Part shown: positions 1-47,035 of the stretch, piece by piece
Layout of the letters: each line of letters opens with the position of its first letter
Numbering within the stretch: the stretch's first letter is position 1
Source of the DNA: a phage
Sequence record: PZ787841.1
Reading direction: 5' to 3' (one strand)
Length of the DNA stretch: 47,035 bases
Notes under the pieces: model-generated
Told to the model about the DNA's origin: nothing
Databases searched by the model: none
What the model saw: the letters and a program-made list of their open reading frames with translations, nothing else
Program-made: the position numbers and the translations under genes

Positions 1-168
1 CATGGAAACCATTTCGCCCTTGGAGGTGTCTTTTACCCAACCTGACAGCCAGTATCTTCAACCCCGGCGACGTTGATGCTGCCTTTGTAGTCGGGTTGTT
101 TGCTGCCGGGAGTCTTGCGGTCGTTGGTAAACAACGCGCCACGGTTGGTGTTATCGTATTGTGTCATC
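1..168 (-). CDS. Small conserved hypothetical protein, 5' part only; the ORF runs off the window start
   Basis: ATG at 166-168 behind a GGAGA RBS; reads MTQYDNTNRGALFTNDRKTPGSKQPDYKGSINVAGVE, then continues in another frame (YWLSGWVKDTSKGE). Confidence 0.4.
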
Positions 169-201
169 TCTAAGTCTCCGGTTGTTTGCTGCCTAAAGTA
201 T

Positions 202-231
202 GTTGTACCATAGGGTTGGGGGCCGTGTCAA
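202..231 (-). promoter_or_regulatory. Weak member of the repeated promoter family (TTGACA -35 at 226-231, poor -10), inside a GTTGGGGG/CCCCCAAC hairpin
   Basis: Minus strand reads TTGACA-18-TACAAC; the downstream leader CAACCGGAGAcTTAGAGATG is shared with the copies at 40.2 kb and 42.0 kb. Confidence 0.3.
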
Positions 232-244
232 CCCCCAACTTATG

Positions 245-2103
245 TTATTTGGTTATGACGTCCTGTCGGGTGGCTTCCCACCAGTTTGCTGCCAGTCCAC
301 CGAAGTCGGTGCGAATCGGCACACGCAGACCTTGTCCTGCACCAGTCGCTTCATCTCGCGCAGGTGGCGCACGGTGATGTCGCCTTCGTCCAGCATCGAC
401 ATTCAGTATTCGTCGTGGATGTTGAGCAGGAATCGGTTGTGCGGGCACTCGCTTTCGATGTATTCGGCGATTTCAGATGTTGCGCTTGTTAAAGTCCGCT
501 GCCGTGCCCTGATACACCAGCCCTGACGCCTTGTACGTGAACATGCCGCCGGGGAATGAATCTTGCGCCCATACATGGTCTTCACATAGCCACGGGATTT
601 GGCGAGCGACCCGGCGCGTCTGGCGACCTCACGCACACCCGGCACTGCCCGGTAGTAGGTTTCCATGACTTCCAGTGCTTCGTCACCCGCCTTCTTCGAT
701 CGGCGCTCTTCGCGCTCGCCGTCAAACATGGCAGTTTCCCAGTGGTACGGCAGATTCATCTGCGACGCCAGCTCGCCGCCGCCCATGTTGAACACCATGG
801 CGAGGTTAATCTGCTTGGCGTTGGCACCACCAGCTCAGGGGCCGACCGGGGCATACCCGTCATGTCCGCCACGATTTGGTGCATGTCGAGGTCCGGGTTG
901 GCAGCATACGCATCAATCAGGCTTTTTGGATTTCGGATAATGCGCGAAGATGCGGAATTCGTGCTGGTCAAGGTCGCCGTAGGTCCACTTCTGACCGGGG
1001 TCTGGCAGGAAATCGGGCGCACCAGCGCGGCTACTTCCTTGTCACGGGAAGGTACTTGCTGCAGTGCCGGGCGGGTGTAGGACAGGCGACCTGTTCCGGT
1101 GCCCTCCGTGCCGTCTCCGTTGTCTCCCTTGGTCTGGTTGATGTTCGGGTGCACGTAGCCATTGACGGCGTTTGCGAGGATGTGCCCGCTGATGAAGGTG
1201 TCACGGGTCTTCATCAGTTTACGTGCCTTGAGAATCAGGCCCGCCGCCGGGTGTTTAATCTTCTTCAGCGCTTCTTTGCCGAGTGACGGCTGGCCCGCGT
1301 CGGTGGTGTCGATCGGCGTTCCGTCTTTGGCGTACCACTGGTCGCCCTCTTTGTACGGCGCGAACAGCTTCTCGATGGACCCCGACGGGTTCGGGTTGAC
1401 CTCGAAGCCAGCTATCTGGTTCAGCTCCTTCTGCGTCTGCTGAACTATGCGGTCAATATCCTTCGACACGCTGGTTCGCCAGTTCTTCATCGATGCGGAT
1501 ACCAACACTCTCCGACGCGATGACGTGCGGTTGCAGGCGCATTTCCAGTTTCCAGACCTCGGTCAGGTCTTGGCGGCTGATTTCCTCTTCCTGCCACTGC
1601 CACAGAGCTAGCTCGGCGTCCACACGGGCGTAGCGGCGCATCATGCTTTCCGGGGCGCGGTGGAAGTTCGGCGCTTGTGCTTTGCGGGTCGGTTTGCCGC
1701 GAAAGAGTGCTGCCAGCTCTGCGTAGATATCATCGACCTTGTTCTCGCCGAGGTATTTGCTCGCCAGTGAGTCGAGGCTGTAGCTCATTAGGTGCTCGTT
1801 GATCAATGCGGCACGAGTTTGCGTGCATTCTGCCACCTTCGGGTCGATGCGGATATCGACTGTGCGGAGCATGTGGATATCGAAGCTTATGTTGTGGTTG
1901 ACCGGGCGACGGATTTGCGGCACTTCCTCGCGCAGCCATTGAAAGGCTTTCAGGTCTTTGCGCAGGTCGTAGTATTCGCTGTATCCGTTGGGTAGGGCGA
2001 TTGACACGCCGAACGCCTTGTCACCACGTGCCCATTCCAGACCTGTCGATTCGCAGTCGATAGCCACCTGCTCATAGTTGCGAAGTCTTGGGAAAATAGC
2101 CAT
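245..2103 (-). CDS. DNA polymerase, family A (Pol I-like), with N-terminal 3'-5' exonuclease domain; at least 3 frame breaks
   Basis: Exo motif DCESTGL (ORF 1453..2103); palm-like region in ORF 756..1508; motif C LLNIHDE (ORF 403..798); Pol I-like C-terminus VPI..GGLAANWWEA (ORF 245..448). Confidence 0.85.
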
Positions 2104-2109
2104 TATTTT

Positions 2110-3580
2110 TTCTCCAGTTTTACGGGTTTCATCAGGATAGGGAGGGCGTTGTCACCGTGGACGATGTCGAGGATGTTCTTCGTGCGCGTCACTGCTACGT
2201 AAAAGGTGCGCATTTCGGCATAGATGCCTTCCTTGTTGTCCATGCTCTTGGCGGTCTTGTTCGACACGTCGTTCGATGACTACGACACGCTCGGCCTGAC
2301 GACCCTTGGACCCGTAGAATCGTGGACAGGTGGATGGTCGGCTTCCAGTCGGTCCCGTACTTGGTTTCGATGCTGCGCAGGTATGCCAGCCACGGTCCGC
2401 CCAGCTTGAGGTGGTCCCACGGCTGGCGGGCAGTTATCTTGTCCCAGCGCCTGCTTGTCCACGCGGCCTTGGCGATTTCGGTCATGTTGCGCTTCATCAC
2501 ACGCACCTCGGCGTCGGTCAGTGCCGGAATCCCTATTTCGCAGATGTTGGTACGGGCTTTCGATAAGACGCAGCGATGCTGACACCGCGCCCTGCAGGAG
2601 GCCCGGACGCCCGGAATCGGTGACGTACGGGATTTGACGCTGAATCAGGTATTCCTCTATCTCCTTGCGCATATAGTGACTGCGGTATAGCACCATCGTA
2701 TCCTCGCCATGAGTCAGCTAAGGCTGTGCGGCGCGACGTGATGCTTGATGACACCTTCTTCGTCACGCGGGCGGTATTCTTTTTTCAACACGTGACGATA
2801 CCTGACCGATGACACGTTCTGAAATACGTGGGCATAGTGTGGCACTCGATAGCTCTGTCCGAGAACGACCCTTTCGGCCCCGTACTCTCTCTCAAAGCGG
2901 TGCATACCGTCCGGGTCCGCCCCACCCCATATGTAGATGGCTTGGTCATCGTCGCCAGCGATGGTGATGTTTCCATAGTTCCCGACCAATGTCGTCAATA
3001 ACCGCCCATTGTAAAGGGGAGAGGTCTTGGGCTTCGTCGACGAACAGGAAATCAAGCCGGGGAGCAGGGATATCAAGAGCAGCGCCGAGCATATCCGAGA
3101 GGTCGATGTAGCCATATGCGTTTTTCCAGTTGTCGTAGGTTTGGGCGAAATAGATGAATCGGTCACGAGTGCCGGGCTGGTCAGTTTGTCGTAGGTGTCA
3201 CCGTAGGAAGTCTATGCGGGCGTGCGCCAGACCGTACAGGGTCAGATAGTGGTCGCCTTCGCGTAGTTCTTCCTCTTCCTCCGGGTTCTCGCCACGAATC
3301 TCGATGCCTACCTCCTTCTCGAACTCCTTCAGGTGTGACCAGCCAATCACCTGTTGCTTCGACACGCCGAGCAGTCGGTAGCAGTAGCTGCGAATGGTGG
3401 CGATGTTGGAGGAAGCCAATACCGATGCGCTGCGCCAGTTCTTTGGCTGCTGCTTTGGTGAAGGAGACTAGACCGATTCGGTCGGATTGATTCCGTCGTC
3501 GAGGAGTGCCGAGAAGCGGCGGATGACTCGGTCGATTTGCCTGTGCCGGGAGGCCCATAAATGGCAGTGTACTGGTTCAT
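2110..3580 (-). CDS. UvrD/Rep-family (SF1) DNA helicase
   Basis: Walker A GPPGTGKS at the N-terminus (MNQYTAIYGPPGTGKS); motif III AGDDDQAIYIWGGA and QSYRVP (ORF 2714..3166); C-terminal TIHGSKGLE/VAVTR-like motifs seen after frame stitching. Confidence 0.8.
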
Positions 3581-3593
3581 GTTTTAATCTCTT

Positions 3594-3625
3594 AAAAAGC
3601 GGCCCCCGAAGGGGCCGAAGGAGGT
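3594..3625 (-). terminator. Rho-independent terminator on the minus strand, immediately upstream of the helicase start
   Basis: Minus strand reads GGCCCC-ttcg-GGGGCC followed by GCTTTTTAAG. Confidence 0.5.
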
Positions 3626-3656
3626 AGCGATACCTCAGGGTAGCTACTGAACGTTC

Positions 3657-4409
3657 TTACATGTCGCTGTGATCTTCCGACGTTGCGTCGAAGGTGCGGT
3701 CTGCTGCGACCTTGCCGGACATCAGCAGCTCGTAGAAGTTTTCAGCACGACGATAGAGAGCTTCGTTCACGAAGGCCACCGGGTCGATTGCCACGTTGTA
3801 GAAATCCTGGCCTGCTTTGTTCTGGTCCGCCACGCCACGGATACGGTACAGGCGGGAGAAGCGATCGCCACCGTTCAGGCGAACGAGGCTGTTGAACTTG
3901 CGGCTAACACGTGCTTTGGACTTCGCCATCGATACCACAGCTCGATGATTTGGCCCGTGCTTTCGCTGACGATAAGACCGAAGTGCTGCGGGGTGTCTAC
4001 CACTTCCCACTCTTCCGGCTTCTCTTGGGTGCTGCGGACGCCTTCGGCTTCTTCTTCGGTCGCGAAGCTGCCACCGAATCCGCCGCCGACCTTCTGGTCA
4101 CGCCACAGCAGGTATTCTTTGACGAAAGCCACTGGCACGAACAACACCGATTCGCCGTAGACTTCACGGGTGACGTTGTTATACAGGTCGCCTTCCTGAT
4201 GCCTTCGATGTAGTTGGGGAAGCCTTTGCGGACTTCGGACAGGGACTGCACCAGTTCGAGGCGCGGCACTGTCATGTCTTCGCTGCCGACACCTTCGTTC
4301 CCGCGACCGTCGCCCATCTTGTCACGCAAGAAATCAGGTACAGCGGAGTTAGAAGGTTGGCTACATTGAAGCCAGCTTCTTGGGTAGCTACTTCGTTCTT
4401 CTTGGTCAT
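3657..4409 (-). CDS. Hypothetical protein (about 250 aa, stitched from three frames)
   Basis: ATG at 4407-4409 (MTKKNEVATQEAGF...); overlapping minus ORFs 3997..4329, 3875..4147, 3657..4010; no motif recognised. Confidence 0.4.
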
Positions 4410-4522
4410 GTTGTTTCTCTCTTATCTATTGGATTTGGCTTATGCCGTTGTTGATGCTGTTTCTTGTTGCTCGATTCTAGCGGGGGAGACGGCCCCCGCA
4501 ACGCCGGACTGATCAATCGAAA

Positions 4523-4786
4523 TTAAGTTTCAATTGGTGCGTTTTTAGGCGCTTCAGCGTGAGTGCCAGTGAAGGTCGGGGTGATCGCACCTTCTTTGTT
4601 GGCGTACGCTTTAACCTTCTCGCCGTCCACTTTGAAGATGGTCGGAGAGGAGGAGGTGCCAAAACCGTACTGCCCACCAGCTTCCAGAACCTTGGTCACT
4701 GCGCCAGAGGCTACTACGTTAGCCGCAGAACGGTTTGCGAATGCTACTACTGCGGTTGCTGCTACTACGATGTTCAGTTTGCTCAT
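4523..4786 (-). CDS. Small secreted protein with N-terminal signal peptide
   Basis: Intact 87-aa ORF MSKLNIVVAATAVVAFA...; hydrophobic N-terminus. Confidence 0.5.
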   Translation of the reverse strand: MSKLNIVVAATAVVAFANRSAANVVASGAVTKVLEAGGQYGFGTSSSPTIFKVDGEKVKAYANKEGAITPTFTGTHAEAPKNAPIET

Positions 4787-4842
4787 GGTTAATCCTTAGT
4801 TGGTCTTGCGGGTTGGCGGGGTCTTGATGCCCCCAGAAGTGC

Positions 4843-4851
4843 ATTATACCA
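4843..4851 (-). promoter_or_regulatory. Extended -10 element TGGTATAAT (minus strand) upstream of the secreted-protein gene
   Basis: Plus-strand attatacca at 4843-4851; no good -35. Confidence 0.3.
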
Positions 4852-5022
4852 TGGTCGATGCCGGATGCGAGTATTGTTTTGCATCCCAACGTATTTTATT
4901 TTTTCTGAATGGCTACATAGGTCTTCGGCGACACGTTAGTGGGTCTTCCGGCAGGCCGTCATTGTCGGCGATAAGAGTCTTTGCTCACACCTTCAGACTG
5001 GACGAGTTGACTGTGTTCTGTA

Positions 5023-5435
5023 TCAGGTCGGCGTGACCGTGGTCTGACAGCCGGAGATATGCTCCCTCTTTGGCACCTGCACGGGTTGACGCATGATGCT
5101 GCTGCTCATATAGACACGACCAACACCCGGCACCGTGAATGACTCGATGCCCGCGTCATCCATTTTGTCGACCATGACGCTATGGCGAAGCCAGTCATAG
5201 GTCTTCTGCATGTCCTTCTTCGAGCGGTCGATTTTCTCGACCGATTCGTTCATCTTCTGATGAATCAGGGCCAGCACTTGAGGTCGCAGCACCGCAGGGC
5301 GTCGCCGACACGCTCTACGCTGAGAAGCTCGGTGGCCTCGTTCAGAAGATCAGCCAGTTGAACCACGCGGGCCAGTACGCTGGACCCGTTCAGGCCGATG
5401 GTTTCTTCGGTGTTGGTGGTGTTTTGTTCGTTCAT
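5023..5435 (-). CDS. Hypothetical protein
   Basis: ATG at 5433-5435 (MNEQNTTNTEETIGLNGSS...); continues in ORF 5023..5292 after a frame break. Confidence 0.35.
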
Positions 5436-5460
5436 CTCTAATCTCTCTCTTATTTGTACT

Positions 5461-5821
5461 TGATAGGAATGTTTGGTCGACCGATAGACTGATAAGTTCT
5501 GGATTGAAGCTGACATCGATGTACGCACCGTCGATGCGGGACCACCAAAGGACGCTAACTTCACCTCATCTGGATAGCCAGAGCGAAGACATACCCCATG
5601 ATGATGGGTTTCCAGACAGCAGGAGGTAGTCGCGGTCCGGGTCGAACTGGCGCATGGCGTCCTCGATGTCGCGCATCAGGGCTGCGTTGCGTGGGCTGTT
5701 TTGACCGGGCTGAACTCGATGGAGGTGATGAAGACGACCTCACCGATTTTTCGGCTGGAAGGTAGTTCAGGTTGGGGTTTTCCTGGACTACGAAGACTTT
5801 CGGCTTTGCGTTGTTGTCCAT
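5461..5821 (-). CDS. Hypothetical protein
   Basis: ATG at 5819-5821 (MDNNAKPKVFVVQENPNLNYLPAEK...); frame breaks downstream. Confidence 0.3.
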
Positions 5822-5854
5822 TAATTAATCTCTCAATCTCGATAAGAAAGGGCC

Positions 5855-5863
5855 ATTATACCA
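5855..5863 (-). promoter_or_regulatory. Extended -10 element TGGTATAAT (minus strand) sitting in the loop of hairpin GGGCCAT/ATGGCCC
   Basis: Plus-strand gggccattataccatggccc at 5850-5869. Confidence 0.3.
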
Positions 5864-5879
5864 TGGCCCGTATGCTTGT

Positions 5880-7720
5880 CTATCGCAGAAGCGCCAGAAG
5901 CTCTTCGGGTGAACGGTCCATGCAGTCACGCACATATGCTGGAAGGTCTTTCTTGTCGTGGATGGCCTTGGCGATGGTGACGTCCACAGTGCCACGTGCC
6001 ATCACATCCGTGTATACTACCGAGTTGGTCGACCGATACGGTGGTTGCGGTCCTCCGACTGCATCCGGTCAACGAGGATGAAAGAGTTGGACATATAGAA
6101 CGTGCGGCTGGCCTTGTTCAGGGTGAGGCCCGTGCCCCCGGTCTGCTGGTTCGATACGAAGAACATGGCGTCACCCCTGAAGGAATTTGCGTTTCTGCTC
6201 GTCGCGCTCGTCCGGGTTCAGCCCGCCGTGGTACTGGCACACCGCATCAGCTCCGTACTTCTCGGTCAGCGCTTCCACGATGTCGGCGATTTCGGGTCGG
6301 AACTGGCCCATATAATCATCGGGTGTCCGGCGTTCTCCTCCGCGTACTCCATCAGGTACGCGATTTTCGGGTTCTTGGCGGGTTCGATGATGCGCACGAT
6401 TTCGCGGTGGCGAGTGCTATGCTCGTCGTTCGGGTCGTCCAGCTTCCAGTACGACACATATCCGGCACAAACTTGCTGCAGGGCCGTATAAGCCGCCAGC
6501 ACGTTCTCGCAGACCAGTTCCACGAAGGAATCGGTGACTGCCCAGCACGCTGGGCCAGCAGCACCGAGAGGTCGGCCTGACGCTCCTTCTTCATTTGGTC
6601 GTATATCTTCTTCTGTTCGGCGGTCAGGTCCACTTCCACGGTGGTATACATCTTCGGCGGGAGGTCTTTCAGCACGTCTTCCTTCTTGACTTGGTACACG
6701 TACGGCTTGATGATCTCCATCAGCTCTTCGATATTGGTATACCCAGTGATTTGCTTGTTCTGGAACCCGCCCTTCTCGCAGTAGCGAGCTTGGAACGACC
6801 CGAAGTCGCCCAACCCGATGATGTCCGGTGACAGGAACTGGAACTGCTGGTACAGGTCCATCGGCCCCTGCGAGATGGGCGACCCGCTCATTATTGCCTT
6901 GTATTTGGACTCGCGGCCCAATATCTCGATGTCGATAGCGCGTGATGCGTCGTGACCCTTGATTTTGTGCGACTCATCCACTGCCTGCATGCGCTGATGG
7001 CTGCGGCGGACAAACTGGGAGGTAGCCGCATACGCTTTGCCCTTCGCTTTGCCCTGACTGAGTGACTCGATGCCGACGATAAACACCTTCATCTTGTTCA
7101 TACCAAAGTCAGCATCGTTGACAGTTTGGCCTTCTTCTCAAACCCGGACATGGTGGTGTCGCAAACAAACGCCTCGTACGGCACGCCGCAATGGATAGCC
7201 AGCTCGTTCACCCAGTTGGTACGGAGCGGTACGGGGCAGTAAATGACCAGCGCGTTTACGATACGAGCGCGGAACCGGGCCGAGGACAGGGTAGATCAGG
7301 GTTTTCGATTTGCCAGTGCCCATCTCCATGAAGAACGCCACCAGCGGAGAGGACCAGCTAAAATCCAGCGCGTCACGCTGGAACGGGAACGGGTTTGTCT
7401 TGAAGTTCGTGCCACGTCGGGAACAGTTCGCGCCGGGTGATGGCGACCGAGTTCACGGCCTCGTTGCACTCCTGTATCACTTGGTCACAGATAGAGACGC
7501 CCGGCTTGCCGACGATGTTGTTCAGCAGGTGCTCGGCGTTCCGACGGATGATCGGCACTACCCAAATCGAGCGGCGTTTCTCAAAGCGGCGGTTCGGGAA
7601 GGCACATAATAAGGTTGTGTACGAGATGGACGCCTCGATATGCATACGCCCGGTGTTGTCGTTCAGACTGATTTTCATGTATGCGCCGGGGCGCTTGTTG
7701 GTATTCGTAGAGTAGAACAT
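5880..7720 (-). CDS. SNF2-family (SF2) helicase/ATPase
   Basis: Motif I GTGKS (ORF 7138..7341), DExH box DESHKIKG (ORF 6352..7101), C-terminal QSEDRNHRIGR motif VI after stitching. Confidence 0.8.
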
Positions 7721-24292: not shown

Positions 24293-25357
24293 TTACTTTC
24301 TTACGATCGTAAATGCGCTCCCAGTTGGTCGCCGACGGAGGTCAGCCCAACTTGCGTTCTTCACCGCCACGCCGTCATCGGTCGAACCGTTGCCAGTCAG
24401 TGTGGTGGCGTTGAACTTGTACCCGGTCGGGTCCAGCAGCCACGTTTTACGGGAGAACAGCGTCTCGACGCCGCCACCGTGACCGCCAGATGGGGAACGA
24501 TCGATTTCGTGCGGAACGCGCGGCGTACCGTTGCCGTAGGTCAGAGAACCTGCACCGAACAGCACGGTCAGGTAGGTACGGGTCGGGCCGCTACCGAACG
24601 TCGGCATGGAGTCATCAATGACCACACGGCAGTTCTTGTACGACAGGTACAGGAGGTTGCCTTCGGAGTCGCGGATGTACTCGATTTCGTTGTTCTTGGT
24701 GATGCGCTTCGCCACCATGGAATGCATGGCTACAACGCCCAGATTGCCGACGTGGTCGCCCATCGTAAACTGCGCGTCTACGAAGTTGTTCACGTTGAAA
24801 TCTGCTCGCCGACGTCCGCATAACCGGAGGCGTCGACCACCATGTCGCCGCCGTTCGCCGCCACGTTGTCGTTGTACAGGCCAACGACGGTAGCGATGAT
24901 GCGCTTCTGGAACTGACGTGCCCAGTAGTTGTCTACACGGTTCGCCATGCGCTGGTTCGGAGAAGAACCTGCCAGCTCGGTGACGAGGTCTGCCGCAGCC
25001 CAGCTGTTGTTCAGGAGGAACGCAATGCGTGCGGTCTGCTCAGAGTTCGTTTTGTCCGGCGTGGAGTGATCGGCTGGGTTGTCGTTCGAGTAGTTCGGCT
25101 CGTCTAGACGCGTCAAATCGATTCCAGTGCGGCAGGGTGATAGTGGAACCACCATTTGCCAGCATGCTGTTAATGAGTGGGGAAGAGCGCATCACGCCGG
25201 AATCGGCAAACGCGGTCAATTCCACGTTGTGGTTGACGGAATAGCTGGTAAACAGGTCCGGGATATATGCATCCGTCAGGGCCACTGTGCCAGCCGCGCC
25301 CGCCAACGTGGGCGCGATGTAGTCAGGAACTAAGATACCGCCTGCTGTCTTTTTCAT
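24293..25357 (-). CDS. Major capsid protein
   Basis: ATG at 25355-25357 (MKKTAGGILVPDYIAP...); ORFs 25040..25534, 24790..25155, 24293..24793; position between scaffold-like and neck genes. Confidence 0.6.
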
Positions 25358-25379
25358 GCTTGTCTCATTATCCGAAAAG

Positions 25380-25990
25380 TCGTTTGAGTTGTTCCGGGTC
25401 TTCTTTCGCAGTCTGGCACGCTCTGCTTCCGGCATGTTCCGCGCGGTTTCACGGTATACTGCTCGCTCTGCCCACCCGGTCCACGTTGTCCACCAGTACC
25501 AGACCCGCCCTTGGCAGTCAGGAACGGTTCCCATTCTTTCACCTGAGCGAGCTCTCCGCGAGATCGTCGAGTGTCATCGCAGACACCGCACCGTCTTTGT
25601 CCAAAACCCGCGTCACCACTTACCGTCTTCATCGATTTCTGCGGTCAGACGTCGGGCCACGTGGTGTTCCATAGCGGACGGCACCTTGAGGAGTTCAGAA
25701 GCCAGTTTAGCAGTGGCTTCGCCCACGGTCGAGGTTGAGATGCTCGCCTTTAGTTACCCTCGGCGGCTTCACTTGCTGCTGCTTAGCTCCGCGATTTGCT
25801 TCTTCTAGGACGCTTCGAGTGCTTCCACATCCGGGCCACCTTTGCCGCGAGACTTGTCATTCCGAGGTCGGTGACCTTCAGTTCCAGTCAGCCAGCTTCT
25901 GGCGCAATGCCTTGTTGGCGTCCTTCTCGTGGTCACGCGCACGGCGCATGGTGTCGAGTGAGGTTTCGTCGAACAGACCCTTCGATGTCG
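25380..25990 (-). CDS. Scaffolding-like protein
   Basis: Charged, helical, fragmented ORFs immediately upstream of the capsid gene; position-based call. Confidence 0.3.
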
Positions 25991-25999
25991 ATGGTCAGC

Positions 26000-27268
26000 T
26001 TAAAACTCGGACCCATCCTGCTCGTACAGGGAGCGGTATGCTTCCGGCACAGAAGTCAGGTTGGACACAGTACGCGCTAGCTTCGCGGACGCCGTGCCAG
26101 CCAGTTGCGGAAAGGTTGAACCGAGTTGATGATGTGGGTGTTTTTCATTGTCATACTCCAGTATGTGCCACGGGCACGGATTTTTTGAGCTATTCGGACC
26201 ACAGGACCGATTCCACTCGCACAGGTCGCAGACCAGCACGTTGAAAGCTGCGGATTGATCCATTCGTTTCATCTCGTCCAGTGTCAACGGTTCGACGAAC
26301 GTCCCAGATTGAGTCGGGCGAACTCTGCGGCGCTGATGCCGCCTTTGTCGAAGAGCTTGGCTCTCGTCGGCCCCAAAGCCAGTACCTTAACTCGTAGGAC
26401 TCGCCTTTTTAACCATTCATAGTAGCTGATGCTGCCTGCCACGTACCCGTCTTTCGAGGAACGAGTGCCGCCTGTTGTGCCGCTGCGGTATTCCGCTTTC
26501 GGCACTGGCACCGTCGTACTACGGGCAACCGGGGTGGAGTGGTGGGACCGGGCCTTGCCCGTTCTTGAACTCCCGACCGTCGAGGCTGGGCAGATGGTCG
26601 AGGTTCGCCCGTCCAGTGTCGCCGCAGTTTATAGCCTTCGACGATGTCGTCGTTTGCGTCCCACGCTGCCATTCTTGCCGTATTCGCCACGTGCTGGGTG
26701 GCTGTCCGGATGACCGTCTCGGTGTCGCGGTTGAACTTCGCCAGCAGCCCGTCGGTGTATCCGGCTTTCTTGGTGCCTCTGACCGCCTGAATCGGCTGGG
26801 ATTTCGTCATCCCTGACCAGTACCCTTTGCGGACCAGGTTCTGCACCGCCTCTACCTGAGCTGTTCTCCCAGTCCTTGGAAAGGCTTCAGCAGCTGCCCG
26901 GTGGCTTGGATAGGTGCTTCACTTGCCAGCTTCCAGCTGTCGATGCTGCTATGGGGTTTATTGTAGCAGAGGTGCCACAGCTGGCAAGGTGTTTAGTTCG
27001 AGGGTAGACTTTCAGCCGCTAATCCTCGTTCTTGGCCTGAATTCGGTGGTCCAGTCCGGCAATACCCCCCGCATTTTTCCGTCGAGCTTCTCGATTGCGG
27101 CGTCTAGGTCACGGAGTGAAGCGCTCGTGCTCGATACGCCTTGGTCGAGTGCCTCCAGCAGCTGACCGGATGGCCCGGTCGAATGCCTTCGGCTGTCTGT
27201 TCCGGAAGTCCTTGCCAGTTTGCGCCTTCAGGCGCTCGTGAGCACCTGCCGACGTGTGATGATATTGA
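26000..27268 (-). CDS. Head morphogenesis (minor head) protein
   Basis: ATG near 27268 (MINNDLINIITRRQ...); ORFs 26409..26846, 26284..26511, 26000..26287; position after portal. Confidence 0.4.
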
Positions 27269-27283
27269 TCAGGTCGTTGTTAA

Positions 27284-28779
27284 TCATTCTTCACTTCCCG
27301 GTGGGTTGTTCGGGTCAGCGGGTGGGTCTTCCTCTTCCGGGTCAGTTCCCAAATCCAGCGGCTGGCGGTTCGTCGGAGTAGATTTCCTCCCGTGCCTCCT
27401 CGTCCTCTTGGAACGCCGTGCCGCCTTTCTTGAACGCAAAGCGCATCTCGAGAGAAGCTGATGGCACCTGCTTGCCACGCCGCGATGTAAGCGGTCATCT
27501 CTTCCGGTGACATCCGGGACAGGTCGAAGTCGGTGTTCAGTTCGAACTCGATTTCTTCGAGGTTGTCGCCCGTGTAGTCACACAGCCAGCTGAGGCACTG
27601 CAGGTACGCCGCACTCACGTTCCGGGAGATGGTCGCTAGGATGGACGTCTGCGTGGCGCGGTCGCCGCTGTATTCCTTCGCCGTACGCTGCACGTCACGG
27701 TTCTGGACGATACGCGCGCCCAGTGCCACCATCTGGTTTTCCTTGTGCTCCATAGCTAGCTACCTTGGCTTCAAGGTTCCCGCTGGTTTCGAGCAGTTTG
27801 ATATCGCCGCCTTTCGGCATTTAATCAGTTCGCGCGAACCTAGGTAGATAGGCTTGTTCCCCAGTACCTCTTACCCAAGCCATATCCAGCCCGGTGACGA
27901 TAGGGGTCGGCTGGCCGATAAAAAAGACTGAGTTCTTCGTAGTCGGCGGAGTTGATGTAGTGGCCTTGGTTAATCTCGGCGATGTCTGCCAGTGGGCTAT
28001 CGTCCACGCCGGGGTCGTTGTTGTCGGAACCCACGCGGTGACTGCCGGGATTTCGTTAACGGCTTGCCATCGGCACGTGTCGGGCGGACCCAGTCGGAAG
28101 CGACCAGTGTATCGTCTACCGTAGTCCAACGACGCGCCCAAAAGTTCGCCGTCGATCAGACGCAGTTCACGGTAGCCCTTCTCTACGTACTCTTCGAAGG
28201 TGTCGTCACCGTTGCGGTCCACGTACTCACGCAGCACGAGCAGGGTCAGGCGGCGCTTGTCCACCCACCAGCGATTCGCGCCAGTTGATGATGTCTTCAG
28301 GCGGTACGTTGGTGGTCGAAGGGGCGGATTTCGCCGCTCGACACATCGGCGGCACTTGCTGCCCCGTCCACGTTGATAGTCGGCGAACAGGCAGTGGCGA
28401 CCAAAGCCGATGACGTCTGTCGTGACTTCTTTTGCCTGCTGATCAGCCCGGTGCCAGAACCCGTGACATCCTCTTGCAAAGCGGCCCACGAGGTAGGCAG
28501 GACGACCACCGGGTCACGGCTGAACACCTGACCCAGCATACCTTTTACCGTGTTTCCGGTGATGTTGTAGAAGCGGGCACGCATCGACATAGTCTTGAAG
28601 CGCTCGTCCCCCATCTTCGTGCCACGTGTGGCGGGGTCGGGGTGCGGCGACCACTCTGCACCACCGCGTTTGACTTCCTGCGGCCCGGTGAGGCACGCAC
28701 GGATGAAGGCGTACAGCCGCTGCACCTTCCGCAGGGCTGTTTTTTCGTACTCAACAGTGGCGACGCTGACTCTTGACAT
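27284..28779 (-). CDS. Portal protein
   Basis: About 480 aa directly downstream of terL; acidic C-terminus DLGTDPEEEDPPADPNNPPGSEE; ORFs 28297..28779, 27821..28489, 27280..27753. Confidence 0.55.
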
Positions 28780-28791
28780 TGGGTTCTCCGG

Positions 28792-30259
28792 TTATCCGTG
28801 GCGGCGCAACTGGACGTCAACACCTGCCATTGAGTTATCGATTTCGTTCAACACTGCATATCGTACGTCATCGTAAACGTGGTCTTCGGCTTTGGTGTCC
28901 ACGTCATCGAACTTTTTCGGGTCGCGCGGCGGCACTGGTAGGGTCGTGCGGAAGGCATTGCATCGATGCATGGCGTAGATGCCCGGCTCTTCCTCGTTTT
29001 CCTTGACTGCTTCGAGTCGGTCGCGCACAAGCTGCAAGCCGTTGGTACGGGAACCGGGGGACTTGTTGGCCCGCTCCCAGTAGACGCCCACGTCTGACAT
29101 CTTGTCGGCGATGGTCGGCTCGTCGTCGCCCTCGTTCTGGTTGAGTATCTGTCCGTCTGCGACCCCTGAATAAGGCATTTTACCCATCCAGCCGCTTTCG
29201 TACCATTCTGTGTCTCTCTCGAGGATACCTTCTCCAACCTTGCGAGCTGCCATCTTTAGAGCCCTTGTTAGACCCTACCTTCTCGGTGCCGTACCACTCC
29301 GCGATACGGATAAGGGAACCCGCCTGCAGAAATACGACCCATCGGGCGGCTTGACCTCCTCACCGTTGGCGATGGCCCACAGCCCGTAGCTGAACGGGTG
29401 AGTGCTGCCCAGTCGAGAAGGTGCGGAAGAATTCGCCACGATTCCGGTACTTTGAAATTCGGCACCATGACCCGGTCGGTCCACACGTCATCGATAGCAC
29501 CACCCGCGACGATGTTCCAGTCACCCGTCTTCATGGCCTTGACCAGCTCAGGAGAACCGAGGCCGGACAGACGTGCTCATAGCCGGGGTCGTTTTTCAGC
29601 AGCAGATCTGGTTGTCCGCCAGCTTCGCGGGGATGTATTGGCGGAGCATACCGCCCTCGTCCTCGGCTGTGCGTGAAATGGCATAGTGTGCCTGATAGTC
29701 GACAAACGCGGCCTTAACCCAGTTGTGGACCAATGCTGCCGGGGTTCGACCCGTTCGTGATAAACGGCAGCTTCTCGCGGTACTCTGGCGGTGGCGACCA
29801 CTGACCGAGACGCACACGACCACGGAGGAAGGTATACTCGGCTTCTAGGAAGTGGGTCAGCTCGTCCATCAGCAGAATGTGGATTTCGGCACCTTGGTAC
29901 TTCATCAGGTTCTTTTTATGCTGCAGGTGGCACAGGTGGATAGTGGACCCGTTGGTAAAAGAATCTTGTTGTCTGACAGAATGCGGCACTGACCAGCTCG
30001 ACCAGCGGGTTGAGCATGACCGGGAAAGAGGAACCACCCTCCATGTGGTTCAGGTAGAGGTCGCCGTAGTTGCGGCGGAAGATGTAAATCTGGACACCGG
30101 GGCACTCCATCGCGTAAATCATAGCCAGAGCACGCATCAGGTGCGACTTCCCGCCGCCAGCTGCTCCGCCGTACAGGATTTCAGTCGCCTTGCTCGATAA
30201 AAGCGAATCCCTGTTTCGGTTGCAGGGACAGGTTGACTTCCGGTGCCATTGCTTGCATC
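28792..30259 (-). CDS. terL: Terminase large subunit
   Basis: ATG at 30257-30259 (MQAMAPEVNLSLQPKQGFAFIEQ); Walker A YGGAAGGGKS after stitching; ORF 29916..30137; nuclease-domain region in ORF 28792..29253. Confidence 0.85.
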
Positions 30260-43755: not shown

Positions 43756-44169
43756 TCATACCCTCGCTAACAAACCGAATAGCCATTCGCGTTTAACCTC
43801 TTCGCTGAAGGAGTGGCGGACGGCGTCCAAGTCCATCGTGGTCGGTCTTGATGGAAGGGTCCACGCCAGCGTGCCCTCGATGGCATACCATCCGACACTC
43901 CGACTTCTACAAACAGCCAGACATTGCCCGCCATCCCGTGGCGGCGAAGCCATGAACGTTGGCCCTGCGAAGTGGGTCAGGTCCAGTCGGCCCTTGTCGT
44001 CCAGCTCCCCAGCCTTCATCTCGATAAACCCGTGTTTTGTGCCATAGGTGAAGCACAGGTCAGGGAATGATGGCGCGGTGGCTGGCGACTCGATGCGGTC
44101 GTATGCCACGTTCATGTGCCGAAGGACCGGGCGAAGCTGGTCCCACATTTTCTGCTCCGGTTTACGCAT
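43756..44169 (-). CDS. VRR-NUC-type (PD-(D/E)xK) nuclease
   Basis: FPDLCFTYGTKHGFIEMKAGE in ORF 43756..44214. Confidence 0.45.
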   Translation of the reverse strand: MRKPEQKMWDQLRPVLRHMNVAYDRIESPATAPSFPDLCFTYGTKHGFIEMKAGELDDKGRLDLTHFAGPTFMASPPRDGGQCLAVCRSRSVGWYAIEGTLAWTLPSRPTTMDLDAVRHSFSEEVKREWLFGLLARV

Positions 44170-44171
44170 TT

Positions 44172-44743
44172 TCAGCACCCAAATAGTCGATGCGACCAAG
44201 GTAGTGGTCGGCACTCAGGGTCAGACAGCTCGTTCCACAGGGCCATCGCCGCCGACTTCCAGAGCGGTGATACATGGTCGAGGTACTGGATGAAACGCTG
44301 GTTCAGCCCGTGTAGCTGGTCGCGGGCGTAGCTACCTTCCCCATGCTCCATCAGCCAGTACAGCGCCTCGATGAAATCGGCGATTCGACACATACCTTGA
44401 TCGGGCCTTTGGTGTCGATTGACCGATAGTAGCCATCGCCTGCAGTCGCTTCCAGAGCTTCGAGTTTTGCCTTTGCGCCGAGGTACTGCTTGGTCGGCGT
44501 GTTGATGTCGCCAGTGAAGACTTCCGGCGCATCGTGCCACAAGGCCATGACCGCCACGCGACCCAGCTCCACGTCGGTGGCGGCTTCGCCGGGGTTCCCA
44601 CCAGTGCGGCGTAGCCACAGGTCCATCGCCAGCATAGCCACGGCCCATGAGTGTTGCGCCACGTTCTGTGGACGGGTGGTCGGCACTATCTGCCAGCGGT
44701 TTACATACTGTGCGCGCATCAGGTCGCGGGGGGTCATATTCAT
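44172..44743 (-). CDS. datZ: HD-domain phosphohydrolase, DatZ-like dATP hydrolase candidate
   Basis: HD motif QHSWAVAML...LWHDAPEVFTGD in ORF 44351..44743; small size; sits beside the PurA-homologue and MazG-like genes. Confidence 0.6.
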
Positions 44744-44854
44744 CTTGTTATACCTTCTTCGAGTTGTGTTGTGACAGATAGTGCCGTTTGCGGGCGTCCT
44801 GCGAGGAGAACCGTCTACCGCAGACTACACAGAGATATTTCTCTATCGGTATGT

Positions 44855-45660
44855 TCAGCGGCTGCTGGACCACTCCGACACTCTGGCTACCACACTGATG
44901 CCCTTATGAACCACCGGGGCGACACCTCGAGTGCGACCGCCATCAATCACATGTTGATGCGTGCCGTCTTCCAGCTTCTCCCACACCCGTTTCTCATTCA
45001 TTGCCATCTTGTTGGCTACGGCCTTGGCGATATCGATCCCGGCTAGGTGTCCGATGTCGAGCAGCAGGATAGCCACATCAGCGAATTCCCCGGCGTCGAG
45101 GTATTTGCTGGTGTCCAGCTCGGTTAATTCCTTCTTCAGCTTCAGCACTGCTTCGCCGATGGTGCGCTCGGGGAACGTGCGGTCGGCCCAGCCGGAAATC
45201 AGCTGTTGGACTTCGGCGATTGTTCCGGTTGAGTATTGGCGAGTCGCTCGCGTCTGTCCATCTTGTAGCGCTTTCTCAGGCACTGGTTGCACACGTAGTC
45301 CGACTTCGCCAGACGGCTGGGGCTGAATGTCACGTCCGACTGCAGGCACACGCGGCACACGGGCGGTCCAGCGGCGGTCATCTTGGTCTGGTCGGTTTTC
45401 GGCAATCCATCGGATAAACATAAGTCCACTTGCGGCGTGCGCGGCGTGGTGGAGGTCGGTTTCATGGTAATCGTTGCTCTTCTCTAATTCCAGTATGCGA
45501 CGCTCACTCCATCCAGAAGGCGCTCGACTGTCAGCCCGCGCCAGTTTCATTTCCCGTATTTTGCCTCACCCGTCGCCAGTACCCGCGCCACCTCCTCGGT
45601 GAAGCGCGGGTCAATCAGGCTAACGGGGCTTTGTCGGCATCGAGTTTCGATTGCTTTCAT
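44855..45660 (-). CDS. mazZ: MazG-like nucleotide pyrophosphohydrolase, MazZ candidate; an N-terminal KYG..NW region and an internal CxxC...CxxC segment may belong to it
   Basis: C-terminal GEAVLKLKKELTEL...GEFADVAILLLDIGHLAGIDI...NKMAMNEKR (ORF 44855..45550); ATG at 45658-45660; zinc-ribbon segment in ORF 45199..45465 in another frame. Confidence 0.5.
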
Positions 45661-45673
45661 CGCCCCTGCTCCT

Positions 45674-46781
45674 TATTCCTGCTCGTGTTTCATGTCGGTG
45701 AAGATGTCGTTCACGGTCGCGCCGTAGCCGTAGTATGTAGCCAGCGGCATATTGCCCGGAATCCCGGCGACCATTGCGGCACGTTCGATGGTTCCCACCA
45801 CTCAGCCACTTCGTCCGGCGTCATGTAGTTGGAGAAGTTGAGGAATACTCATCCGGGCGAATCGACTTCGAGCGCCGCCAGCGTCTGCAGGTAGCCGAAG
45901 GTGAAGATGCGGCGCGGGAGCTTGGTCACGGTGGTCAGTTCCGCTTCCATTCCGAGGTCTTTCTTCCAGTCCAGTTCCTTCTGGTCTTCGTAGTACGGGC
46001 CGGACCAATTTGCTCACCTGCTCGTTGTTGTAGCGGTTGGCTACGCGGATTGGGTAGGTGCGCATCGTGGCGATCGTGGTCTCGACGAAGGCCAGCGGCA
46101 GGTTGACGTCGACACAGACCTGTGCCGGGGTGCACTCGCGGGAGGTCGCATACGGGTAGAAGCCGTTGTTGATGCCGAGGCTGAGTCCCTGCGCACCCTC
46201 CACCGAATGCGTTCCGCGTCGTAGACTACCGACATATACTCGGCGTTGTTGGCGGTGCTGGTGGAGATGCCCGCTTCACGGATTGGCTTGCTTGTAGATG
46301 TGCTCTTCCATGTAGTCGGCGTTTCCGCCTACCGTGTTGTTGTCGTCCGGGTTGCGCGATGGATTTGGAAATCATCGCAGCACCGCAGCCTTTCTTGGTA
46401 GACCCGATTTTGGTCATCGGGCCTGCTTCCTCTTCCACGTGCTTCTGCATGATAATAGCAGCGGAGGAGTGTAGCATGATGCGTTTGCCGCGCAGCAGGT
46501 CCACACAGGACAGGATTTCGTCGCGCAGCAGTTCGACGTTCATCTGGCTACCGGGGCCAATCGGCACGGTGGTTAGCTTCGGCGATACGATGCCGTTTGC
46601 CAGCATGCAGTGGACAAGCTTGCGGCCTTCTGCATCGATGAGGTGTGGCCTGCGTTGGCACTCCACGCGGTCATCACTACGTCCGGCTGGTCGCGCGGGG
46701 CGACGTAGCCCGCAATGAGACCCTTGCCAGTGCTGCCAACTGCGCGTCAACGATGATAGTGGCTTTTTGTGTTGCTTTCAT
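45674..46781 (-). CDS. purZ: Adenylosuccinate-synthetase homologue, PurZ candidate (N6-succino-2-amino-2'-deoxyadenylate synthase)
   Basis: ATG at 46779-46781; P-loop-like GSTGKG, ANAGHT (GHNAGHT-like), LVHCMLANGIVSP, FEGAQGLSLGINNGFYPYATS (ORF 45802..46203); stop TAA at 45674-45676. Confidence 0.7.
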
Positions 46782-47035
46782 TTTATTGCTCCTGTGCATT
46801 TGCACGTTGTTTTAAGTTTAGGGTTGTACTGCGGTACTGCGTGTTCTCGGAGTGGGATGTCGTCGTCGAAGTCCATCGGCGGTTCGCTGCTCTGGTTCGA
46901 CGGGTTGTTGCCCCATCCACCTTGCTGCTGGTTCTGCTGCGGCTGCTGGTTGGCACCCAGCTGGCGCGGACCCTGTGCACGGGCCTGTGTGTTCTGGCGG
47001 GTGTTGGCACCGGGGCCGTCTTTCGGTTCTACCGA
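46778..47035 (-). CDS. ssb: Single-stranded DNA-binding protein, C-terminal part only (gene starts beyond the window end)
   Basis: Gln/Gly/Pro-rich tail ending PPMDFDDDIP, characteristic of the bacterial-type SSB C-terminal tip. Confidence 0.6.
   Translation of the reverse strand, partial: SVEPKDGPGANTRQNTQARAQGPRQLGANQQPQQNQQQGGWGNNPSNQSSEPPMDFDDDIPLREHAVPQYNPKLKTTCKCTGAIK

Follow-up and report, generated by a model that had tools for sequence, protein, structure and literature searches.

Aminoadenine-incorporating DNA polymerases (DpoZ) serve phages whose DNA contains 2-aminoadenine (Z) instead of adenine, and those of the phiVC8-like type constitute PolA cluster #18 in the classification of Czernecki et al. 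2023. Their type member, from the Vibrio phage phiVC8, is known from a crystal structure (PDB entry 7PBK; PMC10201439). In vitro, the DpoZ of phiVC8 and that of the Acinetobacter phage SH-Ab 15497 use dZTP one to two orders of magnitude more efficiently than dATP, according to PMC8599892, which cites Pezo et al. 2021 for the characterisation of the SH-Ab 15497 enzyme. The preference of the phiVC8 enzyme has been attributed to backtracking towards the exonuclease site, which is easier after an A:T than after a Z:T pair (PMC8599892). For a third phage, the Salmonella phage PMBT28, co-expression of the polymerase in E. coli raised plasmid dZ from ~19% to 29–44%, and to ~50% when the phage helicase and SSB were added (PMC12944874). 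Here we compare with these systems a family-A polymerase gene at positions 245–2103 (minus strand) of the phage sequence PZ787841.1, whose 47,035 nucleotides were analysed as a whole and are called the window below. We conclude that the gene very probably encodes a phiVC8-like DpoZ, in the sub-branch of PMBT28, PSA28, SH-Ab 15497, and Kokobel2, and that this polymerase of family A replicates the DNA of a PMBT28-like siphovirus with Z in place of adenine.

Family membership and Z-gene context

The gene begins with an ATG at 2103–2101 and ends with a TAA at 247–245, exactly the limits given in an earlier note made from the letters of the window, and it encodes ~620 residues after frame repair. 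That note spoke of a "stitched" polymerase, and accurately so: the gene is split into at least four open reading frames (ORFs; 1453–2103, 756–1508, 403–798, and 245–448). We built the repaired polymerase by frameshift-aware alignment of the PMBT28 polymerase to the window DNA. The product gave two Pfam matches only, a 3′–5′ exonuclease domain (PF01612, residues 5–165; 1609–2091, minus strand) and a polymerase domain (PF00476, DNA_pol_A, residues 211–609 of the stitched protein; 281–1473, minus strand, approximate because of the frame breaks), so the earlier description of a family-A polymerase with a 3′–5′ exonuclease holds. The Pfam scan of the stitched polymerase found no 5′–3′ nuclease domain, again as described, and there is no room for one upstream, since Exo I lies at residue 16 with 15 residues ahead of it and the gene for a UvrD-like helicase ends on the polymerase start codon. 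The helicase stop overlaps the polymerase start by one base, and the same is true in PMBT28.

The profile model for phiVC8-like DpoZ recognises the repaired protein over its whole length. Against NCBIfam NF038380 (phage_DpoZ_1, "aminoadenine-incorporating DNA polymerase DpoZ"), which has a curated whole-protein cut-off of 500 bits, the stitched polymerase scored 869.1 bits across profile positions 1–607 of 607, despite six unknown residues. The controls PMBT28, SH-Ab 15497, and phiVC8 scored 943, 939, and 909 bits, respectively. The closest polymerases of phages that lack purZ (PaMx11, S144, and HTVC023P) stayed under the cut-off at 315–324 bits. The best PDB match, spanning the full length, was 7PBK (E 1e-150, 506 bits); Klenow came next at ~1e-37 and 133 bits. 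A 100% bootstrap split, described below, points the same way, and the family membership that the earlier note had proposed as a candidate is borne out.

Relatives in the phage collection fall into tiers of polymerase identity. The closest, at 81–84% over the full length, are PMBT28 (AUZ95520.1; published as dpoZ), the Pseudomonas phage PSA28, and two Klebsiella phages, VLCpiS6a and vB_Kpn_K21lambda1. Kokobel2 and ten Acinetobacter phages, SH-Ab 15497 among them (62%), follow at 62–63%, and the phiVC8-type vibriophages (phiVC8 42%), Alteromonas phage ZP6, Stenotrophomonas phage BUCT555, and two Burkholderia phages lie at 40–42%. Below this last tier identity falls to 29%. A purZ gene was present in 58 of the 58 phage records with at least 39.8% polymerase identity, and the Pseudomonas, Salmonella, and Bordetella phage groups at ~29% were missing from the organism counts of purZ matches. 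No relative in the phage collection exceeded about 78–79% nucleotide identity, and no polymerase relative in IMG/VR was closer than 84%. The 216-residue ORF at the N-terminal end of the polymerase had no identical entry on record. Judged from these sequence identities (about 78–79% for nucleotides and 84% for the polymerase to the nearest record), the phage is new at the species level and differs in species from PMBT28. The window thus adds a DpoZ that differs by ~16% in protein sequence from its nearest relative to a small family that counted ~20 non-redundant members in the 2023 classification and that is of practical interest for producing Z-substituted DNA in vivo. The family, the gene neighbourhood, and the activity of the closest orthologue are already published, and the understanding of how such polymerases work is unchanged.

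The earlier note had called for a phylogeny against DpoZ, T7-like, and bacterial Pol I sequences. We computed a neighbour-joining distance tree from 17 polymerases only (546 columns, 500 split-based bootstraps). All eight purZ-linked polymerases, including those of the window, phiVC8, and SH-Ab 15497, were separated by a split with 100% bootstrap from T7 gp5, Klenow, and the Wayne polymerase. Within this split, the window polymerase grouped with PMBT28 and PSA28 at 100%, and the group enlarged by SH-Ab 15497 and Kokobel2 also received 100%.

Closure of the window places the polymerase beside the Z genes. DNA alignment with PMBT28 and PSA28 showed that window positions 1 and 47,035 join seamlessly inside an ssb-like gene, with residues 1–55 of the PMBT28 protein mapping to 167..1 and residues 56–113 to 47035..46850. 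Because the two ends of ssb join in this way, the window is complete: its 47,035 bp form a closed circle, or else a genome that is circularly permuted, cut inside ssb and with no terminal overlap. After closure, the minus strand reads helicase, dpoZ, ssb, purZ, mazZ, datZ, as in PMBT28 and PSA28, and the Z cluster (purZ, mazZ, and datZ) lies directly downstream of ssb. The expectation that the polymerase would lie about two genes from ssb and purZ if the genome were circular is therefore confirmed, and the polymerase stands in the DpoZ clade next to the Z genes, not in an unrelated clade far from them. In SH-Ab 15497 the polymerase, ssb, and purZ are likewise adjacent; in phiVC8, unlike the window, the polymerase and purZ are separated by a gene for an integrase. 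The 47-kb circle is confirmed as a complete PMBT28-like Z-genome phage with a helicase, DpoZ, SSB, PurZ, MazZ, and DatZ block.

The residues and insertions described for phiVC8-like enzymes are also present. In phiVC8 numbering, Czernecki et al. 2021 (PMC8599892) list insertions at residues 349–353, at 442–448 in helix O past R440, and at 473–491, together with L455 and F459 in motif B, G548 in motif 6, and an exonuclease domain whose E1/E2 element is extended and bears R161 (or K) and M165 (or I/A). We judged each of these by sequence alignment in the same numbering, taking insertion 1 as that of the palm, insertion 2 as that within helix O after the conserved Arg, and insertion 3 as that of the fingertip. 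The window protein, which is collinear with phiVC8 along the whole chain, has all three insertions, with R419 followed by an insertion 2 that reads SAPxAGG owing to a frame break. L434 and F438 in motif B and G528 in motif 6 correspond to phiVC8 L455, F459, and G548. In the exonuclease, Exo I supplies the catalytic residues D16 and E18 and Exo II supplies D75, equivalent to phiVC8 D26, E28, and D85; the exonuclease region aligns without gaps to phiVC8 residues 140–175 and places R140 and A144 on helix E2 at the positions of R161 and M165. The window protein differs from phiVC8 in having Ala in place of M165 and an insertion 1 longer by four residues. The Ala is shared with the PMBT28 group, whereas SH-Ab 15497, a phage of another host genus within the same sub-branch, has Ile there; SH-Ab 15497 otherwise has the same L, F, and G and an insertion 1 of equal length.

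The nearest sister group consists of phiJL001-like PolAs from phages with ordinary DNA (cluster #11), here sampled from Mesyanzhinovviridae, Loughboroughvirus, and the Pelagibacter phage HTVC023P, at 28–33% identity. These share insertion 1, and in Mesyanzhinovviridae also have an insertion at the site of insertion 3; all but S144 have Leu at the L455 position. They differ in that F459 is replaced by the canonical Tyr and G548 by Asn and in that insertion 2 is absent, and their host groups are not among the purZ matches. In the aligned set, F459, G548, and insertion 2 set each of the eight polymerases linked to purZ apart from the five closest ones of phages without purZ.

Three other assignments were considered and rejected. 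As a bacterial DNA polymerase I, the protein scored 161 bits with TIGR00593 (cut-off 720) and 126 bits with NF004397 (cut-off 600), and it has no 5′-nuclease domain. T7-like gp5 is 21.6% identical over aligned columns, and T7 falls outside the DpoZ split. Wayne-like DpoZ (PolA cluster #19) has the same proposed role and shares the motif B change of Tyr to Phe, but the Wayne polymerase matches a separate model, NF038381, which was not among the model matches of the window polymerase. It is ~23% identical, lies across the 100% split, and belongs to a Z cluster with a dUTPase homologue in place of DatZ and MazZ.

Inferred Z selectivity and the probable replicase role

We propose that the enzyme works within a pathway whose chemistry is taken from the literature and whose phage genes are present here. 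MazZ would supply dGMP, which PurZ would condense with aspartate; host PurB and host kinases would complete dZTP, and DatZ would destroy dATP. The helicase, DpoZ, and SSB, encoded side by side, would replicate the genome, and DpoZ would extend opposite template T far more efficiently with dZTP than with dATP. The broken frame in the window is an artefact of sequencing or assembly and not a property of the gene as the phage carries it. By analogy with its orthologues, we infer that the window enzyme prefers Z over A.

Several points weigh against this reading. No intact ORF spans dpoZ, whose repair took seven frameshift corrections and the read-through of one in-frame TGA. Motif C reads H564-D565-E566, that is, HDE where phiVC8 has HDS; S583 is, however, not characteristic of the phiVC8-like clade (PMC8599892), and both the PMBT28 group and SH-Ab 15497 have the E as well. 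No single residue explains the Z preference, and each signature residue occurs in some polymerase of ordinary DNA (Czernecki et al., PMC8599892). The evidence from PMBT28 is a rise of dZ in vivo, not a measured selectivity, and the only enzymes known to be selective in vitro are those of phiVC8 and SH-Ab 15497. In the cyanophage S-2L, DpoZ is dispensable for complete A-to-Z replacement, DatZ being enough (PMC10201439). Finally, a 2025 preprint reports no significant gain in dZ when the phiVC8 enzyme was co-expressed in E. coli.

With the HDE of motif C, the longer insertion 1, and the Ala at the M165 position, the enterobacterial PMBT28-like sub-branch might discriminate Z from A with a polymerase/exonuclease balance somewhat unlike that of phiVC8 DpoZ. 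A different balance could explain why dZ rose in E. coli with the PMBT28 enzyme and not with that of phiVC8. Z-containing DNA might also cause the dense indel noise of the assembly by disturbing base calling. We regard this pair of conjectures as unlikely.

It is improbable that the protein is a DpoZ by descent without a useful intrinsic preference for Z, in a phage where DatZ removes dATP and the polymerase uses whichever purine triphosphate remains. In S-2L, a PrimPol without selectivity suffices together with DatZ for complete replacement (PMC8599892, PMC10201439), datZ is present in the window, and both the lack of any single known structural determinant of selectivity (PMC8599892) and the phiVC8 co-expression result in E. 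coli are in keeping with this possibility. Against it stand the one to two orders of magnitude by which the phiVC8 and SH-Ab 15497 enzymes both favour dZTP in vitro (PMC8599892). The window enzyme is 62% identical to the SH-Ab 15497 enzyme with every clade signature kept, and its orthologue from PMBT28, at 81% identity, increased the incorporation of dZ in vivo.

The replicase role could also fall to another protein of the window. A 518-residue protein with an archaeo-eukaryotic primase (AEP) domain is encoded at ~9273–7735 (minus strand), and it might be the main replicase, as PrimPol is in S-2L, with PolA confined to gap filling or repair. This gene is present in the window and its PMBT28 orthologue has the AEP domain PF22548 (E 7e-12), but only ~125 of the 518 residues belong to the domain, and no solved structure matches the protein in sequence. 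PolA, by contrast, lies in one block with the helicase and SSB, the co-expressed PMBT28 trio raises dZ incorporation, and every phiVC8-like PolA is described as the replicase of its phage (PMC10201439). We therefore consider a replicative AEP protein very improbable; the protein is probably the phage primase. On the minus strand it is followed by a gene for an SNF2-family helicase at 5886–7693.

The broken reading frame

We located the frame breaks by three-way DNA alignment with the PMBT28 and PSA28 polymerase genes (all positions on the minus strand). Relative to both, there is an extra A at 1463–1464 and another within an A-rich stretch at 933–936 (near 934). One base is missing at 1012 and one at 557 (C in PMBT28 and PSA28 in each case), one (G/A) at 832–835 (near 833), inside insertion 2 where the protein reads SAPxAGG, two at 475 (GC in both relatives), and one from an A run at 334–335. 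The in-frame TGA lies at 403–405, two residues past the catalytic HD in motif C; at this codon the relatives encode Ser, with AGC or AGT. The gene also carries two in-frame deletions relative to PMBT28 and PSA28, of 9 nt at ~1114 and of 6 nt at ~1603, and these are probably genuine. The former trims insertion 1 to its length in SH-Ab 15497, and the latter drops QL in the exonuclease domain.

Breaks of this kind run through the whole genome. The same frameshift-aware alignment counted 62 frameshifts in nine other conserved genes (large terminase, portal, capsid, SNF2 helicase, UvrD-like helicase, ssb-like gene, purZ, mazZ, and datZ; regions 2103–3580, 5886–7693, 24300–30200, and 44162–46781), which over ~11 kb amounts to ~5.6 per kb, and the longest ORF in the 47 kb is 523 residues. 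Every conserved gene examined is broken, and no phage could exist with all of its essential genes broken. Selection on the polymerase is also intact: the ratio of nonsynonymous to synonymous substitution rates (dN/dS) was 0.092 against PSA28 and 0.101 against PMBT28, compared with 0.099 between PMBT28 and PSA28, both of which are intact. The window polymerase has only two private substitutions at columns invariant in 14 other DpoZ-clade polymerases, within the range of the intact sequences, and the genome is of full length and collinear with PMBT28.

Because the breaks are genome-wide and the dN/dS is 0.09, the noise, which consists mostly of indels, is best read as sequencing or assembly error and not as gene decay. 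Seven frameshifts and an in-frame stop within 1.86 kb might suggest a true pseudogene in a decaying or defective phage, but we find this scarcely credible, given that every conserved gene examined, including terminase, portal, and capsid, is broken at similar or higher density, that the genome has its full length, complete synteny with PMBT28, and ends that join into a circle, that the dN/dS equals that between intact relatives with no excess of private changes at invariant positions, and that neither the large deletions nor the relaxed selection that decay would bring is seen.

Among the seven polymerase indels (missing C, G/A, C, GC, and A; extra A and A) there was no clear A/T bias, the bases being too few and too mixed, and an error bias related to Z was rejected on the same grounds. 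Each gene of this sequence needs frame repair before use.

Uncultivated relatives and neighbouring genes

Seven relatives from IMG/VR, at 42–84% identity, have the same motif B residues. In five of the seven, purZ lies within the fetched flank; one of the others is on a contig that ends ahead of the place where purZ could lie. The remaining contig, L026 (IMGVR_UViG_3300022707_002195), has its polymerase at 4001–5893, which belongs to the DpoZ clade (NF038380, 786 bits), has Ser for the signature Gly of motif 6, and carries 12 private changes at otherwise invariant columns. No purZ, mazZ, or datZ was found in the 4 kb downstream, and the contig is not among the best 80 of 149 IMG/VR purZ matches. 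L026 may therefore hold a DpoZ-type polymerase without an adjacent Z cluster.

All genes around dpoZ described here are on the minus strand. The Z cluster consists of purZ at 45673–46781 (81% amino acid identity to PMBT28 PurZ after repair of 10 frame breaks), a mazZ-type (d)GTP diphosphohydrolase gene at 44748 (approximately) to 45660 (PF18909 and PF04447 on the PMBT28 orthologue), and a datZ-type gene for an HD-domain dATP triphosphohydrolase at 44162 to 44746 (approximately; PF12917 and PF13023 on the PMBT28 orthologue).

The ssb-like gene begins with an ATG at 167 (5′ part, 1–167) and continues across the window ends into its 3′ part at 46847–47035, which ends in MDFDDDIPL (46847–46873); its PMBT28 orthologue matches PHROG 18154, single-strand DNA-binding protein. 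The corresponding tips are MDFDDDIPF followed by a stop in PMBT28 and MNFDDDIPF followed by a stop in PSA28. The same acidic tip forms the C-terminus of E. coli SSB. In the window the expected stop reads CGA, so the ORF is ~25 codons longer; the CGA probably contains an erroneous base.

Downstream of the dpoZ stop and ahead of the ssb start, the sequence and its alignment reveal an inverted repeat, GTTGGGGG-TTGACACGG-CCCCCAAC, at 215–239 (minus strand). PMBT28 and PSA28 also have a stem here, built of other bases, and TTGAC is in or near the loop. No T-run follows the repeat.

On the other side of dpoZ, the UvrD/PcrA-like helicase gene occupies 2103–3580 and has 13 frame breaks; its assignment comes from Pfam matches of the PMBT28 orthologue. 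In positions 1–4500, the numbers of predicted promoters and terminators did not exceed those in shuffled sequence. The only good terminator candidate in this interval is a hairpin at 3600–3617 (minus strand) with seven G-C pairs followed by CTTTTT, 20 nt ahead of the helicase ATG, and it may mark the start of a helicase–dpoZ transcription unit. Three further genes lie between the SNF2-family and UvrD-like helicases, at 3666–5815, and their PMBT28 orthologues match the Pam3 gp32-, gp33-, and gp34-like Pfam families. The gp34-like gene is strongly conserved, with one segment reaching up to 95% identity.

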